Origin: a virus
Taxonomy: Duplodnaviria; Heunggongvirae; Uroviricota; Caudoviricetes
IMG/VR virus record: IMGVR_UViG_3300029711_000143
Strand: one strand, 5' to 3'
Length of the DNA: 4,320 nucleotides
How positions within the stretch are numbered: position 1 is the first letter of the stretch; every line of letters starts with the position of its first letter. Both the position numbers and the translations under genes were made by a program. The notes under the pieces were generated by a model. The model had not been told where the DNA came from, made no database searches, and was given only the letters and a program-made list of their open reading frames with translations. Positions 3 through 4,320 of this stretch are shown here, piece after piece.

Positions 3-128
3 ATGAAAACCAGTATTATCAACGGCTCGGAAGTGTCTAGATTATCCGTGGCGATTCAAAGCTGTATGAAGAAAACACATTCATGGGCAGATGTGACATT
101 ACAGGGAGTTTTAGTTTTCAATTGCTGA
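3..128 (+). CDS. Small ORF (41 codons) or 3' end of an upstream gene cut by the window edge; unknown function
   Basis: Open frame from ATG at 3 to TGA at 126-128 (MKTSIINGSEVSRLSVAIQSCMKKTHSWADVTLQGVLVFNC). Upstream context is outside the window, so the start and RBS cannot be judged. Lies directly upstream of the moron ORF on the same strand. Confidence 0.2.
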   Translation: MKTSIINGSEVSRLSVAIQSCMKKTHSWADVTLQGVLVFNC

Positions 129-138
129 AGGCATCGAA

Positions 139-156
139 TCATATTCATATTCATAT
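139..156. repeat. Perfect tandem hexamer repeat (TCATAT)x3 just upstream of the 175..720 ORF
   Basis: Direct reading: tcatat tcatat tcatat at 139-156, followed by a GAGGGG Shine-Dalgarno at 163-168 and the ATG at 175. AT-rich, so possibly part of a promoter (-10 region) or an operator. Confidence 0.5.
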
Positions 157-174
157 TGTTTTGAGGGGTAATTC

Positions 175-720
175 ATGGATGCAGGGATAGCCTCAGTTGT
201 CGCCGCAATTATTGCCGCAGCTGCAGCTGGAGTGGGGCTTGTTATCACTAAGGAGAATAAAACATCTGAGTTTCGGCAAGCGTGGATAGATGGTTTAAGG
301 GAAGAGTTAGCTGAATTGATGGAGAACTTTTTACAATTACGCACGACTCCGCCTGAGAAGCTCCCTGAGGTGGCTGGAAAAATTTATTTTCTTTCCGCAA
401 AAGTGAAGCTTAGGTTATCCAGTAAAAACTTAACTAATGAAGAGTCTCAGCTTTTGAAAATCATTGAGGATTACATTTTAAAAATGGATCGCTCATCTAA
501 CATTACAGATGTGGTCAGACAGTATTTTGAATATAGTTCCAGTGTTCTTAAAACTGAGTGGGAGAGAGTGAAACGAGGCGAGAAAAAATACAGAGTCGCT
601 ATCACGGTTTCGTACTCAATATTGGGTTTTTTGGGGCTCTATTTTGCTTTACGTTTCATTCCAGCGATAAGTGAAAAAATCTTAGAAATTATAGAGTTTT
701 TAAATTATTCGTTGTTCTGA
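175..720 (+). CDS. Hypothetical membrane protein (181 aa) with N-terminal and C-terminal hydrophobic segments and a central charged domain; AT-rich moron; candidate superinfection-exclusion or abortive-infection factor
   Basis: ATG at 175 preceded by GAGGGG (163-168) at 6-nt spacing; 181-codon ORF with no internal stops. Residues ~4-24 (GIASVVAAIIAAAAAGVGLVI) and ~150-172 (VAITVSYSILGFLGLYFALRFIPAI) are strongly hydrophobic, and the hydrophilic domain between them is flanked by basic residues. Base composition is visibly more AT-rich than the downstream nin genes (rough by-eye estimate ~40% vs ~50% GC). A perfect stem-loop follows at 761-791. I do not recognise it as a lambda core gene. Confidence 0.7.
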   Translation: MDAGIASVVAAIIAAAAAGVGLVITKENKTSEFRQAWIDGLREELAELMENFLQLRTTPPEKLPEVAGKIYFLSAKVKLRLSSKNLTNEESQLLKIIEDYILKMDRSSNITDVVRQYFEYSSSVLKTEWERVKRGEKKYRVAITVSYSILGFLGLYFALRFIPAISEKILEIIEFLNYSLF

Positions 721-760
721 TGACAAGCTTTGATTTTCCATAATCAACTTGTCATAATTA

Positions 761-791
761 AGTCACCGGAGCCTGAACAACTCCGGTGACT
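761..791. terminator. Perfect 11-bp stem / 9-nt loop hairpin downstream of the moron ORF; possible (bidirectional) terminator or regulatory structure
   Basis: AGTCACCGGAG (761-771) pairs perfectly with CTCCGGTGACT (781-791), loop cctgaacaa. Only a weak T-tract (TTCT) follows on the + strand; the reverse complement is followed by TTAATTAT. Termination function is therefore uncertain. Confidence 0.35.
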
Positions 792-911
792 TCTGCGCTA
801 AACGGGGACGTTTATGCGCACATACAATCCAAACTCTCTTCTCCCTTCACAGATGCAGAAATGTACCTGCGATTTTTTGCATCCAGCGTTTGACCTCTGC
901 GGAGGTGAATC

Positions 912-1367
912 GTGAACCTCCTACAAGATGGCATCAAATTGCATCGTGGTAACTTCACCGCTATCGGCCAGCAGATCCAGCCTTATCTGGAGGAAGGCAA
1001 ATGCTTTCGCATGGTGCTTAAACCGTGGCGAGAGAGACGCAGTCTTTCCCAGAATGCACTCAGCCACATGTGGTACAGCGAAATCAGTGAATACCTCATC
1101 AGCAGGGGGAAATCGTTCGCTACCGCAGCATGGGTAAAAGATGCTCTCAAACACACATACCTCGGTTATGAAACCAAGGACCTGGTTGATGTCGTAACCG
1201 GCGAAATCACTACTATCCAGTCGTTACGCCATACCTCCGATCTTGATACCGGAGAGATGTATGTCTTCCTGTGTAAGGTTGAAGCCTGGGCGATGAATAT
1301 TGGCTGCCACCTGACTATTCCGCAGAGCTGCGAGTTCCAGCTGCTGCGCGACAAGCAGGAGGCGTAA
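912..1367 (+). CDS. ninB: NinB/YbcN-like protein (lambdoid nin-region recombination-associated protein), 151 aa
   Basis: GTG start at 912 with GGAGG (901-905) 6 nt upstream. The translation ([15 protein letters not shown]...[19 protein letters not shown]...) matches my recollection of DLP12 YbcN / the NinB family. First gene of a translationally coupled block; its stop TAA (1365-1367) overlaps the next ATG. Confidence 0.85.
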
Positions 1368-1537
1368 TGGCTACACCGCTTATTCGTGTCATGAACGGAC
1401 ACATCTACAAAGTACCAAATCGTCGTAAGCGTAAACCTGAGCTGAAGCCATCCGAAATACCAACTCTGCTCGGATATACCGCCAGCCTGGTTGATAAAAA
1501 ATGGTTGCGACTGGCAGCAAGGAGGAATCATGGCTGA
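1367..1537 (+). CDS. ninE: NinE-like small protein, 56 aa
   Basis: ATG at 1367 overlaps the ninB stop (TAATG). Translated by hand: [56 protein letters not shown], stop TGA 1535-1537. It is too short to appear in the ORF track. Basic composition and position match lambdoid NinE. Confidence 0.7.
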   Translation: MATPLIRVMNGHIYKVPNRRKRKPELKPSEIPTLLGYTASLVDKKWLRLAARRNHG

Positions 1538-1820
1538 TTTGAGAAAAGCAGCGCGTGGTCGGGAATGCCAGGTAAGAATCCCTGGCGTATGTAATGGCAA
1601 TTCTGAAACGTCTGTACTGGCACATATCCGGCTGGCTGGATTGTGCGGTACCGGTACCAAACCGCCAGACCTGATTGCCACCATTGCATGTTCTGCCTGT
1701 CACGACGAAATCGACCGCCGCACACATTTTGTCGATGCTGAGTATGCAAAAGAATGCGCGCTGGAAGGTATGGCGAGAACACAGGTTATCTGGCTGAAAG
1801 AGGGGGTTATTAAGGCGTGA
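1530..1820 (+). CDS. ybcO: YbcO-like Cys-rich protein (DUF1364-type putative metal-dependent nuclease), 96 aa
   Basis: ATG at 1530 preceded by AAGGAGG (1519-1525) and overlapping the ninE stop. The track ORF 1491..1820 begins at an in-frame TTG, but the ATG at 1530 with its strong SD is the likely start. Translation [24 protein letters not shown]...IACSACHDE has clustered Cys/His residues consistent with a Zn/metal site. Confidence 0.8.
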
Positions 1821-2179
1821 ATACCTACAGCATCACATTACCCTGGCCTCCGAGCAATAATCGCTATTACCGCCATAATCGCGGGCGCACGCACATCAGC
1901 GCAGAGGGGCAGGCATACCGCGATAACGTCGCCCGAATCATTAAAAACGCAATGCTGGATATCGGCCTGGCTATTCCTGTGAAAATCCGCATTGAGTGTC
2001 ACATGCCGGATCGCCGTCGCCGTGACCTGGATAATCTGCAAAAAGCTGCTTTTGACGCACTTACCAAAGCAGGTTTCTGGCTGGATGATGTTCAGGTCGT
2101 TGATTACCGTGTTGTGAAGATGCCCGTTACCAAAGGTGGGAAGCTGGAGCTGACCATCACCGAACTGGGGAATGAATGA
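1817..2179 (+). CDS. rusA: RusA Holliday-junction resolvase (crossover junction endodeoxyribonuclease), 120 aa
   Basis: GTG at 1817 overlaps the ybcO stop (GTGA). Translation [24 protein letters not shown]...DLDNL...[11 protein letters not shown] matches RusA of lambdoid prophages from memory, in length (120 aa) and sequence. Confidence 0.9.
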
Positions 2180-2316
2180 TGTTTGAGTTTTATGTGACAG
2201 AACGTCTTCGCCACCGCTGGATGCGCCTGCGCTTATATCGTTTCCCCGGTTCTGTTTTGACCGATTACCGGATACTGAAGAATTACGCCAAAACACTGAA
2301 AGGAGCTGCCGCATGA
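2176..2316 (+). CDS. ylcG: YlcG-like small basic protein, 46 aa
   Basis: ATG ATG at 2176/2179 overlaps the rusA stop (aATGaATGATG). Hand translation: [46 protein letters not shown], stop TGA 2314-2316 overlapping the Q ATG at 2313. Position and sequence resemble DLP12 YlcG. Below the ORF-track size cutoff. Confidence 0.6.
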
Positions 2317-3002
2317 ATACCCAATATTTACAGTATGTCCGCGAGCAACTCATTGTGGCTACCGCTGATTTGAGCGGAGCAACGAAAGGCCAGCTTGAAG
2401 CCTGGCTGGAGCATGCACAATTTGATACTGGTACATACAAACGAAAGAAGCGACGCATTCTGGATGAGGTAACTGGCAAGATTATTATGCTGGATAATCC
2501 GCCGATTTCCGGTAAGCAGTCGTACGCAAAAGGTTCATCTGTCGCCCTGATCAGTCCGGTCGAGTTTTCAACCTCTTCATGGCGCCGCGCTGTTCTGTCT
2601 CTCGATGAGCATCAGAAAGCATGGTTGCTGTGGAGTTACAGTGAAAATATTCGCTGGGAGCATCAGGTTGCCATAACGCAGTGGGCATGGAGCGAGTTTA
2701 AGACTCTGTTGGGTACCAGAAAAATTGCAGGTAAGACACTGGAACGCCTGAAGAAGTTGATCTGGCTGGCGGCACAGGATGTGAAGAGCGAACTGGCAGG
2801 GCGTGAGGCTTATGAATACCAGGAACTGGCGTCACTGGTGGGAGTGACATCAAAAAACTGGTCTGAGACATTCACTGAACGCTGGGTTGCAATGAAGCAC
2901 ATTTTTCTACAGCTTGATAGCGAAGCTTTATTGCTTCTAACGAGAACACGTTCAAAACAAAAGACGACATTTTCACAGCAAAATATTGCAAAACTGGATT
3001 AA
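2313..3002 (+). CDS. Q: Putative late-gene antitermination protein Q (non-lambda-type Q family), 229 aa
   Basis: ATG at 2313 with GGAG (2301-2304) 8 nt upstream. It sits between rusA/ylcG and the lysis cassette and is followed by a promoter/terminator region, which is the canonical position of Q. The protein contains no cysteine, so it is not the zinc-finger lambda-Q type. Assignment is mainly positional. Confidence 0.65.
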   Translation: MNTQYLQYVREQLIVATADLSGATKGQLEAWLEHAQFDTGTYKRKKRRILDEVTGKIIMLDNPPISGKQSYAKGSSVALISPVEFSTSSWRRAVLSLDEHQKAWLLWSYSENIRWEHQVAITQWAWSEFKTLLGTRKIAGKTLERLKKLIWLAAQDVKSELAGREAYEYQELASLVGVTSKNWSETFTERWVAMKHIFLQLDSEALLLLTRTRSKQKTTFSQQNIAKLD

Positions 3003-3033
3003 AAAGCATATATTTCATATAAATCTGATATTT

Positions 3034-3063
3034 TGCCAATGTTGTACGCACTGGCAGTAATCC
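3034..3063 (+). promoter_or_regulatory. Candidate late promoter (pR'-like) with probable Q-utilisation site immediately downstream of Q
   Basis: TTGCCA (3034-3039) as a -35-like hexamer with AGTAAT/TAATCC (3056-3063) as a -10-like element at 16-18 bp spacing, in an AT-rich stretch just after the Q stop. Weak consensus match; exact boundaries uncertain. Confidence 0.3.
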
Positions 3064-3183
3064 AAATTCAAGCTCGAGGTTTTAAGCCTTGGGCTTTTCT
3101 GTTTCTGGGCGGTGAGTATCCTTCCAACGTACCCCAGACAGGGTGTCTTCAGCTGTTGAGTTGATATTGCTTAACCCTCTGTT

Positions 3184-3209
3184 GCCAGCTACATGCTGGC
3201 TTTTTTATT
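3184..3209 (+). terminator. Intrinsic (Rho-independent) terminator, tR'-like, between Q and the lysis genes
   Basis: GCCAGC (3184-3189), loop tacat, GCTGGC (3195-3200), followed directly by TTTTTTATT (3201-3209). A classic hairpin plus U-tract on the + strand. Confidence 0.55.
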
Positions 3210-3311
3210 CCAGGCTTGCGGGGAGCATCAACTCCGTGCTTTGTCGTTAAATTACCCCGTGAGCCTGATTTCTGACATTTAACGTCCCGGCCTTTTGTCG
3301 GCGGCGAAACA

Positions 3312-3629
3312 TTGGCTATTCATATGCACGAAAAAGAGAGCCTTGCCGGAGCGTTCTGGCTCGTTTTGCTGATCATCGCAGGTTGGGGCGGTCTGGTCCG
3401 CTACCTGATAGATGTGAAGCAGAGTAAAGCAACGTGGAGCTGGATAAATGCTCTGGCTCAGATAGTGGTATCAGGATTCACCGGTGTTATTGGTGGCCTG
3501 ATCAGCATCGAAAGTGGATTCAGTATTTACATGATTCTCGCGACAGCGGGGATTAGTGGTGCGATGGGTTCGGTTGCACTGACGTACTTCTGGGAACGAC
3601 TGACAGGGGTGAAAAATGCAAAATCTTAA
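3312..3629 (+). CDS. Holin (class I-like, three predicted transmembrane segments); start uncertain (TTG 3312 or ATG 3324)
   Basis: ORF directly upstream of and overlapping the endolysin gene. Hydrophobic segments LAGAFWLVLLIIAGWGGLV, WINALAQIVVSGFTGVIGGLI and FSIYMILATAGISGAMGSVALTYF, with a charged C-terminal tail ([11 protein letters not shown]). The track start at 3312 is a TTG, with an in-frame ATG at 3324. The sequence is unlike lambda S as I recall it. Confidence 0.75.
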   Translation: MAIHMHEKESLAGAFWLVLLIIAGWGGLVRYLIDVKQSKATWSWINALAQIVVSGFTGVIGGLISIESGFSIYMILATAGISGAMGSVALTYFWERLTGVKNAKS

Positions 3630-4092
3630 TCCTCAGCGTAAAGCTTTCCTCGATATGGTGGCATGGTCAGAAGGAACGGATAACGGACGGCAGAAAACCA
3701 GAAATCATGGTTATGACGTCATTGTAGGCGGAGAGCTATTTACTGATTACTCCGATCACCCTCGCAAACTTGTCACGCTAAACCCCAAACTCAAATCAAC
3801 AGCTGCCGGACGTTATCAGCTTCTTTCACGCTGGTGGGATGCTTACCGTAAGCAGCTTGCTCTGAAAGACTTCTCTCCGAAAAGCCAGGATGCTGTGGCA
3901 TTGCAGCAGATTAAGGAGCGTGGCGCTTTACCGATGATTGATCGCGGTGATATTCGTCAGGCAATTGACCGTTGCAGCAATATCTGGGCTTCACTGCCGG
4001 GCGCTGGTTATGGTCAGTTCGAGCATAAGGCTGACAGCCTGATTGCAAAATTCAAAGAAGCAGGCGGAACGGTCAGAGAGATTGAGGTATGA
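3616..4092 (+). CDS. R: Endolysin, lambda R-type lytic transglycosylase, 158 aa
   Basis: ATG at 3616 with AGGGG (3605-3609) upstream; overlaps the holin 3' end by 14 nt. Translation [62 protein letters not shown]... is near-identical, from memory, to phage lambda R (158 aa) apart from the first few residues. Confidence 0.92.
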
Positions 4093-4320
4093 GCAGAGTA
4101 ACCGCGATTATTTCCGCTCTGGTTATCTGCATCATCGTTTGCTTGTCATGGGCTGTTAATCATTACCGCGATAACGCCATTACCTACAAAGCCCAGCGCG
4201 ACAAAAATGCCAGAGAACTGAAGCTGGCGAACTCGACAATTACTGACATGCAGATGCGTCAGCGTGATGTTGCTGCGCTCGATGCAAAATACACGAAGGA
4301 GTTAGCTGATGCGAAAGCTG
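4089..4320 (+). CDS. Rz: Rz spanin (inner-membrane i-spanin), 5' portion; truncated by the window end
   Basis: ATG at 4089 overlaps the R stop (ATGA). Hand translation [48 protein letters not shown]...[13 protein letters not shown] matches lambda Rz from memory. N-terminal TM segment present. The ORF continues beyond position 4320. Confidence 0.85.
4309..4320 (+). CDS. Rz1: Probable start of Rz1 (outer-membrane lipoprotein o-spanin) nested in the +1 frame of Rz; only the first 4 codons are in the window
   Basis: ATG at 4309 in the +1 frame relative to Rz, preceded by AAGGAG (4296-4301) at 7-nt spacing, about 220 nt into Rz, where lambda Rz1 begins. Too little sequence in the window to confirm the lipoprotein signal. 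Confidence 0.35.

Follow-up and report, generated by a model that had tools for sequence, protein, structure and literature searches.

A mobile cargo gene between ren and ninB

The DNA analysed here, a stretch of 4,320 bases referred to below as the window (IMG/VR record IMGVR_UViG_3300029711_000143), comes from an Escherichia prophage, lambdoid and of the phage-82/DLP12 type, of which it represents the nin-Q-lysis segment. Its leftmost complete gene, which we term ORF181, lies on the plus strand at positions 175–720 and encodes a protein of 181 amino acids (aa), for which a preliminary description made from the sequence alone had proposed the status of a moron and, as a candidate function, phage exclusion or abortive infection. 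We found ORF181 to be a genuine, horizontally mobile cargo gene whose position, with the replication genes O, P and ren on one side and ninB on the other, is a variable slot.

Comparison with other prophages and with phages delimited a cargo cassette of ~670 bp, consisting of ORF181 and its leader (57–728, plus strand), with a guanine-plus-cytosine (GC) content of 38.7% vs 49.1% for positions 729–4320. On the left-hand side, all 27 other E. coli copies (15 in complete genomes, 12 on IMG/VR contigs) align with the window solely from base 57 onwards, and their left neighbour differs from that of the window. On the right-hand side, the homology of phages that do not possess ORF181 (82, Turner and Lambda_4C10) to the window begins at 725–729. 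Judged from these alignments, the unit of movement is 57–728, with recombination boundaries at 57 and ~728. Bases 1–56 of the window had no match in the 27 other E. coli copies or in any compared locus, which places a recombination junction at 56/57. The tail of an open reading frame (ORF) of 41 codons (3–128) reads through this point, whilst the 108-aa gene found upstream in the other genomes stops before it, indicating that the upstream neighbour in the window differs from theirs.

Carriers of ORF181 make up 15 of 5,426 complete E. coli genomes (0.3%), and the flanking backbone (about 720–900) is found in thousands of E. coli records that do not contain the gene. The same junction is occupied by other small ORFs in Turner and by an alpha/beta-hydrolase gene on the opposite strand in Lambda_4C10, and by emrE-ybcKLM in DLP12 of K-12. 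As related phages thus hold different genes at this junction, the ren-ninB site is a cargo slot, with ORF181 as one of its rarer occupants. The cargo of DLP12, Lambda_4C10 and Turner resembles ORF181 in that both are foreign in composition and polymorphic in presence or absence, and the lambdoid cargo at this site is, like ORF181, inserted directly to the left of the promoter-like region of orf33, the first backbone gene; the gene content itself, however, is unrelated.

The moron-like accessory status put forward in the preliminary description is therefore supported by the AT-richness of the gene, by its rarity among complete E. coli genomes and by a slot that holds other cargo in related phages. 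As would be expected of a moron, ORF181 is an extra gene between backbone genes of some but not other close phages, and its composition (38.7–39.2% GC, depending on whether the cassette or the gene is considered) is unlike that of the flanking phage genes (47–52%). Classical morons, however, also have a promoter and terminator of their own, which are not demonstrable for the ORF181 cassette: a sigma-70 consensus is absent 5′ of the gene, and the hairpin on its 3′ side is a backbone element that lacks a U-tract, although homologues elsewhere, being antisense to their neighbours or behind a terminator, must be autonomous units.

In all E. coli prophages examined, the cargo region 5′ of ORF181 contains a frameshifted ren pseudogene, a 164-aa protein and the 108-aa hypothetical protein (positions 10467–11979 and 6467–7979 of the two loci L001 and L002, respectively). 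The 164-aa protein bears the RefSeq name 'type VI secretion system-associated protein TagO'. All three are unlinked to the ORF181 homologues of other genera.

Expression signals and coding status of ORF181

ORF181 had been described as possessing its own ribosome-binding site (RBS), as not being translationally coupled to the nin genes and as more AT-rich than its flanks, and all of these features were recovered by computation. The RBS, GAGGGG, is located at 163–168 on the plus strand, 6 nt 5′ of the ATG. The gene is separated by 46 nt from the upstream stop codon and by 93 nt from orf33, whereas the nin-Q genes overlap start-to-stop. Its GC content is 39.2%, with a value at third codon positions (GC3) of 0.39, compared with 47–52% GC for the nin, Q and lysis genes. 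Within the leader, directly 5′ of the RBS, the sequence reads as a perfect tandem hexamer, (CATATT)x3 (140–157, plus strand), that overlaps the sole weak −10-like candidates and could be either a weak −10 cluster or the site of a regulator; neither the repeat nor the leader is conserved upstream of more distant, divergent homologues. A promoter scan called no consensus sigma-70 promoter on the plus strand in positions 1–174, which include the 118-nt leader.

A word-indexed search returned 336 homologues at E ≤ 1e-3, and a diverse set of 40 sequences has 17 invariant residues in common; as such, ORF181 is certainly coding. The same conservation bears on the idea that ORF181 encodes a membrane toxin of selfish character or an addiction element, or that it is a decaying remnant that no longer has a function in the prophage. 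The small size of the membrane protein and the small-residue face of one transmembrane (TM) helix would be in keeping with this idea, as would the ren pseudogene that adjoins ORF181 in E. coli prophages. In disagreement with it, however, the reading frame is intact and at least 98% identical across the 15 complete E. coli genomes, the exact protein recurs on 301 contigs, purifying conservation extends across the family with its 17 invariant residues, no adjacent antitoxin-like gene is conserved, and no Rfam RNA family was detected anywhere in the window at E ≤ 1. We consider a toxin or remnant very improbable.

The phage backbone on the 3′ side of the cassette

The preliminary description had also drawn attention to a perfect 11-bp hairpin following ORF181. 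The hairpin is real (760–792, plus strand) and its perfect stem in fact comprises 12 bp (760–771/781–792) around a 9-nt loop, but it is not specific to ORF181, being a phage-82-type backbone element without a U-tract. The 101-nt region around it folds better than shuffled sequences (z = −5.7), and the terminator scan did not report it. Phage 82 has the identical hairpin, which its record X92588 annotates as a 'possible regulator-binding site' 3′ of the putative orf33 promoter. A function as the terminator of the cassette was rejected, the hairpin being backbone sequence that is devoid of a U-tract and already annotated in phage 82. The promoter scan called a promoter-like site just 5′ of it (TTGATT 730–735/CATAAT 753–758, plus strand), which corresponds to the putative −35/−10 elements of orf33 in X92588; both the hairpin and this site belong to the phage backbone, i.e. 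to the orf33-nin operon. Folding further revealed an inverted repeat at the cassette/backbone junction (720–755, plus strand) that overlaps the promoter-like site. In its nested form this repeat has 14 + 6 bp (TGACAAGC-TTTGATT...AATCAA-CTTGTCA) and begins at the ORF181 stop codon. As phage 82 possesses the inner arms alone (TTGATTT/AAATCAA) at the corresponding position, the outer arms of the 720–758 repeat are specific to the ORF181 junction.

Beyond the junction, the phage 82 record X92588 is 94% identical to window positions 729–2900. The first backbone gene is the small orf33/ylcH-like ORF (814–915, plus strand), which overlaps ybcN/ninB (912–1367) and is followed by ninE (1367–1537), ybcO (1530–1820), rusA (1817–2179), ylcG (2176–2316) and the gene for a phage-82-type Q antiterminator (2313–3002); these seven genes overlap start-to-stop throughout. 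The lysis genes comprise a LydA-type holin (3324–3629), which is a separate gene from ORF181, a lysozyme (3616–4092) and the start of Rz (4089 onward). In the Q-holin intergenic region (2986–3240), a promoter-like site (2986–3014) precedes terminator-like hairpins at 3070–3096, 3184–3200 and 3217–3238, three having been found where 0.5 were expected. These elements presumably represent the phage-82-type late promoter, Q-utilisation region and terminator cluster.

ORF181 is a member of a large, unnamed protein family

An exhaustive search expanded the family to 1,169 clusters (at 50% identity) at E ≤ 1e-3, with 377 of these at E ≤ 1e-10. Nearly all members have 165–290 aa, are unnamed and contain no Pfam domains, and every source labels them 'hypothetical protein'. 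When one genome per species was scanned, 230 loci were found among 185,579 species, and the family ranges over Gamma-, Beta-, Alpha- and Deltaproteobacteria, Acidobacteria, Nitrospira, Verrucomicrobia and Bacteroidota. A further 109 loci were present in IMG/VR, many of which had been predicted as prophages in bacterial genomes, and four records in PLSDB.

It had been stated beforehand that the protein was not recognizable as any characterized family, and database searches gave the same picture. Neither the window protein nor the 40 diverse members had a significant match in Pfam, PHROGs, NCBIfam or PADLOC; weak matches to JMY, TMCO5, NMD3, Bestrophin-like proteins and DUF7168 were inconsistent across members and were discarded. 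A sequence-profile search of the PDB returned nothing below E 0.16, and a Foldseek search of the ORF181 model against the PDB and BFVD returned nothing at E ≤ 1e-3. The literature that was searched, including the DefensePredictor supplements, contained neither the ORF181 motifs nor the accession numbers, and a paper on functional selection in E. coli had no relevant passage on the family. Taken as a whole, the sequence comparisons show that ORF181 belongs to a large, widely scattered and unnamed family and is not a member of any described one.

Predicted architecture and conservation of the protein

Hydrophobic segments had been proposed at both termini of ORF181, on either side of a helical and most likely cytoplasmic central domain, and this layout was reproduced by computation. 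Using 19-residue windows, we found hydropathy peaks at residues 5–24 (Kyte-Doolittle values of up to 2.47) and 141–159 (1.90), the latter having previously been estimated at ~150–172. An AlphaFold model of ORF181, built with the 40-sequence alignment, agrees with these positions and predicts helices at residues 3–54, 60–81, 88–101 and 111–180 with a predicted local distance difference test (pLDDT) score of 89.9. In this model no break separates the first TM helix (TM1) from bundle helix 1, or bundle helix 4 from the second TM helix (TM2). We have good confidence in this predicted arrangement of TM1, four-helix bundle and TM2.

Conservation, calculated by region as the mean identity to the window protein across the diverse set, is distributed very unevenly along the chain. 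TM1 (184–246, plus strand, as for all segments given here; residues 4–24) has a conserved small-residue face formed by A6, A10, A11, A14/15, A18 and G21, and positions 6, 10, 11, 14, 15, 18 and 21 carry small residues in 75–100% of the 40 sequences. One-sided helix faces of this kind are used for tight packing of TM helices. It is followed by juxtamembrane motif 1 (247–309; residues 25–45, TKENKTSEFRQAWIDGLREEL; KENKTSEFRQxW), with a mean identity of 0.82, and by the variable, membrane-distal part of the four-helix bundle (310–543; residues 46–123), for which the value drops to 0.21–0.23; at residues 78–82 the bundle contains an LRL(N/S) turn in which L79 is invariant and R80 nearly so. Juxtamembrane motif 2 (544–591; residues 124–139, VLKTEWERVKRGEKKY; LKxEWxRVKRGE) again reaches 0.76, whilst TM2 (residues ~141–165) and a short, probably periplasmic C-terminal tail (residues 166–181; 595–717 for both) have values of 0.20 and 0.10, respectively. 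The 17 columns that are invariant in the 40 sequences are K26, E27, K29, S31, E32, F33, R34, Q35, W37, R42, L79, E128, W129, V132, K133, G135 and E136. According to the model, the two juxtamembrane motifs should be adjacent to each other on the cytoplasmic side of the membrane, where they would form a collar; even among close relatives, the distal tip has an identity of 0.50 vs 0.93 for this collar. Such a pattern suggests that the functional core consists of the juxtamembrane collar at the cytoplasmic face together with the packing face of TM1, and that the distal tip, like TM2, is free to vary.

Two lines of evidence point to the orientation of the protein. Lysine and arginine residues cluster at the end of each hydrophobic segment that faces the central domain. 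In addition, the relatives P0246 and L069 possess an N-terminal Sec-type signal peptide and collagen-like Gly-Pro repeats preceding TM1, and the relatives P0096, P0201 and L093 have a Cys-containing or Pro/Ser-rich extension beyond TM2; as both types of extension are expected outside the cytoplasm, the conserved bundle is probably cytoplasmic (N-out, C-out). We infer that ORF181 has its N-terminus outside, followed by TM1, an antiparallel four-helix bundle of ~115 residues in the cytoplasm, TM2 and a short outside tail. The betaproteobacterial members P0246, P0235 and L069 (2779–3768) carry, before TM1, a signal peptide, Gly-Pro-X repeats and Cys pairs, an unusual periplasmic appendage.

Comparison with known membrane proteins

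Prophages and phages encode several inner-membrane proteins that mediate exclusion or abortive infection, amongst them lambda RexB, lambda/P22 SieB, P22 SieA, HK97 gp15 and T4 Imm. ORF181 shares with these its small size, its predicted inner-membrane location, its status as non-essential cargo of a temperate phage, the single-gene format, the lack of an enzymatic domain, AT-richness and variable presence. It differs from them in that its TM helices are placed at the ends with a cytoplasmic four-helix bundle of 115 residues in between, as opposed to a compact TM hairpin or bundle of four TM helices. The RexB, SieA/SieB, HK97 gp15 and Imm families gave no match to ORF181 at E ≤ 1 in Pfam, PHROGs and NCBIfam, and these exclusion families are represented in Pfam. 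In PADLOC, 'Effector 1TM' matched two of the 40 members at E 0.02, and 'Effector 2TM' matched one at E 0.056.

A second group of proteins to which ORF181 can be likened are sensors with periplasmic four-helix bundle (4HB) modules, such as NarQ/NarX, QseE, TorS and Tar/Tsr. In these, as in ORF181, the first and last bundle helices are continuous with TM helices, and the membrane-distal part is variable whilst the membrane-proximal part is conserved. Sequence identity, however, is 4–12%, with no match to Pfam 4HB_MCP or sensor domains, and as Foldseek returned no match at E ≤ 1e-3 the resemblance is one of fold only. Moreover, the topology appears to be inverted, the bundle of ORF181 being probably cytoplasmic and that of the sensors periplasmic, and ORF181 ends about 15 residues past TM2 with no HAMP, kinase or methyl-accepting output domain. 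We therefore did not assign ORF181 to the 4HB sensors, given that it has no output domain and no Pfam match and that its charge bias and the family extensions indicate a cytoplasmic bundle.

The sole recurring profile match, a weak one, was to LeoB/LeoBC, the dynamin-like protein of the anti-phage system Eleos (formerly 'Dynamins'), and was found for 11 of the 40 members with a best E-value of 1.3e-4 and a range to 5e-2. It always placed TM1 and helix 1 at profile positions ~480–570 of 601, with 10–19 bits. As read from the domain order, this part of LeoB corresponds to a hydrophobic membrane-binding 'paddle' followed by the GED helix (PMC4159319). ORF181, however, has only 181 aa, without GTPase, neck or trunk domains, and has no leoA gene nearby. 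A hydrophobic segment with an amphipathic helix behind it offers the simplest explanation of the match, and membership of Eleos was rejected because the C-terminal part alone matches, no GTPase is present and no LeoA neighbour is conserved. Nor does a holin identity fit: ORF181 lies 2.6 kb upstream of the LydA-type holin, 115 residues separate the two TM helices of its product, and a holin profile was touched by just one of the 40 family members (E 0.024).

Genomic context of homologues and possible functions

In order to survey the neighbourhood of the family, 6,541 ORFs from 160 loci were clustered all-against-all. No conserved partner gene emerged, as no neighbour cluster was common to more than three of 80 diverse genome loci, and the orientation of neighbours was mixed. 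The question of whether homologues occur always in prophages and always alone, which had been raised along with the moron proposal, can thus be answered in part: they stand alone and partner-free, are prophage-borne in every enterobacterial case and elsewhere are found mostly singly among housekeeping genes.

The enterobacterial copies are prophage cargo in several different positions. The slot between P and ninB is occupied by a homologue in E. coli, Klebsiella (38% identity), Kosakonia and Yersinia. In Limnobaculum the homologue lies at a prophage end between icd/att and int, 3′ of the icd terminator and convergent with int, and in Pantoea it lies inside a prophage remnant. On other viral contigs it is antisense between a C5-methylase gene and RecT, or beside an integrase gene. 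One phage group, represented by four of the IMG/VR loci (L134, L140, L157 and L168), has the homologue antisense between the gene for a C5-cytosine methylase of ~690 aa and a RecT recombination operon, about 60–400 bp from the methylase start, which points to a second recurrent cargo slot with a divergent promoter region. The antisense, integrase-side and post-icd-terminator placements mean that homologues at these sites require autonomous transcription. A canonical terminator-like site accompanies the Klebsiella homologue.

Transcription is central to one explanation of ORF181, namely that it is an accessory protein of the lytic cycle that is expressed as part of the early-right (pR) operon and modifies the host inner membrane for the benefit of the phage, for instance by tuning the timing of lysis, by anchoring replication or assembly, or by excluding kin during lytic growth. 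In favour of this, the gene reads in the same direction as O, P and the nin genes, both in the window and in the prophages of Klebsiella, Kosakonia and Yersinia, and a consensus promoter belonging to the gene itself was not detected. In Kosakonia, a terminator-like hairpin lies directly 5′ of the homologue, such that transcription may depend on antitermination. Set against this are the self-transcribed homologues that are antisense in early-left operons or lie between att and int past the icd terminator, and the location of most family members outside recognizable prophages. In addition, ORF181 is rare in near-identical lambdoid prophages and absent from deposited phage genomes, and hence dispensable. 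On balance, we regard a lytic-cycle role as unlikely.

Most chromosomal copies have a context of a different character. The Uliginosibacterium homologue, for example, is flanked by genes for a LysR regulator and a luciferase-like oxidoreductase. This context is relevant to the possibility that the family consists of general membrane-homeostasis or stress proteins of cellular origin, which are occasionally taken up as phage cargo and benefit the lysogen in ways other than phage defence, such as by conferring envelope stress tolerance or by modulating a universal membrane machine or lipid via the juxtamembrane collar. Chromosomal copies are mostly single, between ordinary metabolic, transport or tRNA genes; motifs that are invariant across phyla imply a universal target; the fold is similar to that of four-helix bundles with signalling or scaffolding roles and to no known toxin; and PADLOC matches among neighbours are not clearly enriched. 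Atypical of housekeeping genes, on the other hand, is the very sparse and patchy spread (230 loci among 185,579 species, and 0.3% of complete E. coli genomes). There is also no synteny between related species, the gene is found repeatedly in cargo slots of prophages and beside integrases, and its composition is foreign and AT-rich. As an explanation of ORF181, we consider a homeostasis function rather doubtful.

The explanation that we tentatively favour, whilst holding it to be somewhat short of an even chance, is that ORF181 is a non-essential conflict or 'lysogenic-conversion' factor at the inner membrane, and most probably a single-gene phage-exclusion or abortive-infection protein. Its genomic context makes it a reasonable and plausible candidate for such a role, and in certain prophages and genomes the surroundings of homologues are suggestive. 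In Kosakonia, a gene pair for AAA_21 and RloB (TOPRIM-like) proteins (L178, 3825–5819) lies in the P-nin slot upstream of the homologue. This pair resembles AbiL/PARIS-type defence and is separated from the ORF181 homologue by an unannotated gap of 1.2 kb. In Marinobacter sp. PE14 (L015, 3653–11655), the homologue is located among genes for a CAP12-PCTIR TIR protein and for TPR, SocA_Panacea, DUF4145 and TIR_2 proteins as well as several unannotated ORFs, a run that looks like a defence island. Defence-like company of homologues thus exists, albeit as anecdotal cases. Integrase-like ORFs were present within 5 kb of nine of 80 chromosomal copies; by a rough estimate this is several times the background of ~2%, yet it remains a minority.

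If ORF181 acts in exclusion, we envisage that the variable tip of the cytoplasmic bundle would recognize a phage- or stress-derived cue, and that the rigid link provided by helices 1 and 4 would relay the resulting change to the conserved juxtamembrane collar; passage of a signal in this manner is suggested by the continuity of these helices with TM1 and TM2. Copies of TM1 might then pack through their Ala/Gly face, and this packing could either compromise membrane integrity or block a membrane step of infection.

A number of observations weigh against an exclusion or abortive-infection role. No member of the family was detected by tblastn at E ≤ 1e-3 in 50,697 deposited phage genomes, nor was ORF181 itself detected there by DNA; given that no deposited phage has the family and 109 IMG/VR contigs do, it appears that no carrier prophage has ever been isolated in phage form. 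When 148 genes neighbouring the homologues at 19 genome loci, one of five such sets of neighbours, were batch-scanned with Pfam and PADLOC, no clear enrichment typical of defence islands was seen, the neighbours being mostly housekeeping genes with two integrases and scattered single PADLOC matches. In 68 of the 80 chromosomal loci, no integrase-like ORF was present in about 16 kb, and most chromosomal copies lie among housekeeping genes, where the context is unsuggestive. Defence, exclusion and toxin families all lack homology to the protein, and oligomerization and pore formation would be purely conjectural. The lack of a consensus promoter in the window, together with co-directionality with the early-right operon, means that expression may be confined to the lytic cycle, and in Kosakonia the terminator-like hairpin sits just 5′ of the RBS of the homologue. 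Finally, juxtamembrane motifs that are near-invariant from Acidobacteria to Enterobacteria suggest a universal cellular target, which fits housekeeping as well as defence.

Implications

What is new here is the family and its architecture; that small membrane proteins serve as prophage cargo is known, and no surprising mechanism has been shown. Should ORF181 prove protective, it would constitute a minimal, partner-free membrane defence gene that is missed by all current defence-finder models, and the ren-ninB slot of lambdoid prophages would become a defence-cargo hotspot comparable to those of P2/P4. A bolder extension of the exclusion role, and one that we regard as speculative and unlikely to hold in full, is that ORF181 founds a class of single-gene, membrane-embedded 'inside-out' anti-phage sensor-effectors, in which the tip would sense a phage cue and the collar would drive oligomerization of TM1 through an Ala/Gly zipper, leading to depolarization or a block of genome entry by a mechanism common from Acidobacteria to Enterobacteria. 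If the protein is instead a factor in membrane homeostasis, the invariant collar should point the way to an inner-membrane partner that is universal. In either case, the motif residues K26, E27, S31–Q35, W37, R42, E128, W129, K133, G135 and E136 are obvious targets for mutagenesis. Whatever its function, a family of 1,169 clusters that combines a double-anchored, putatively cytoplasmic bundle with two near-invariant motifs deserves a database entry of its own.

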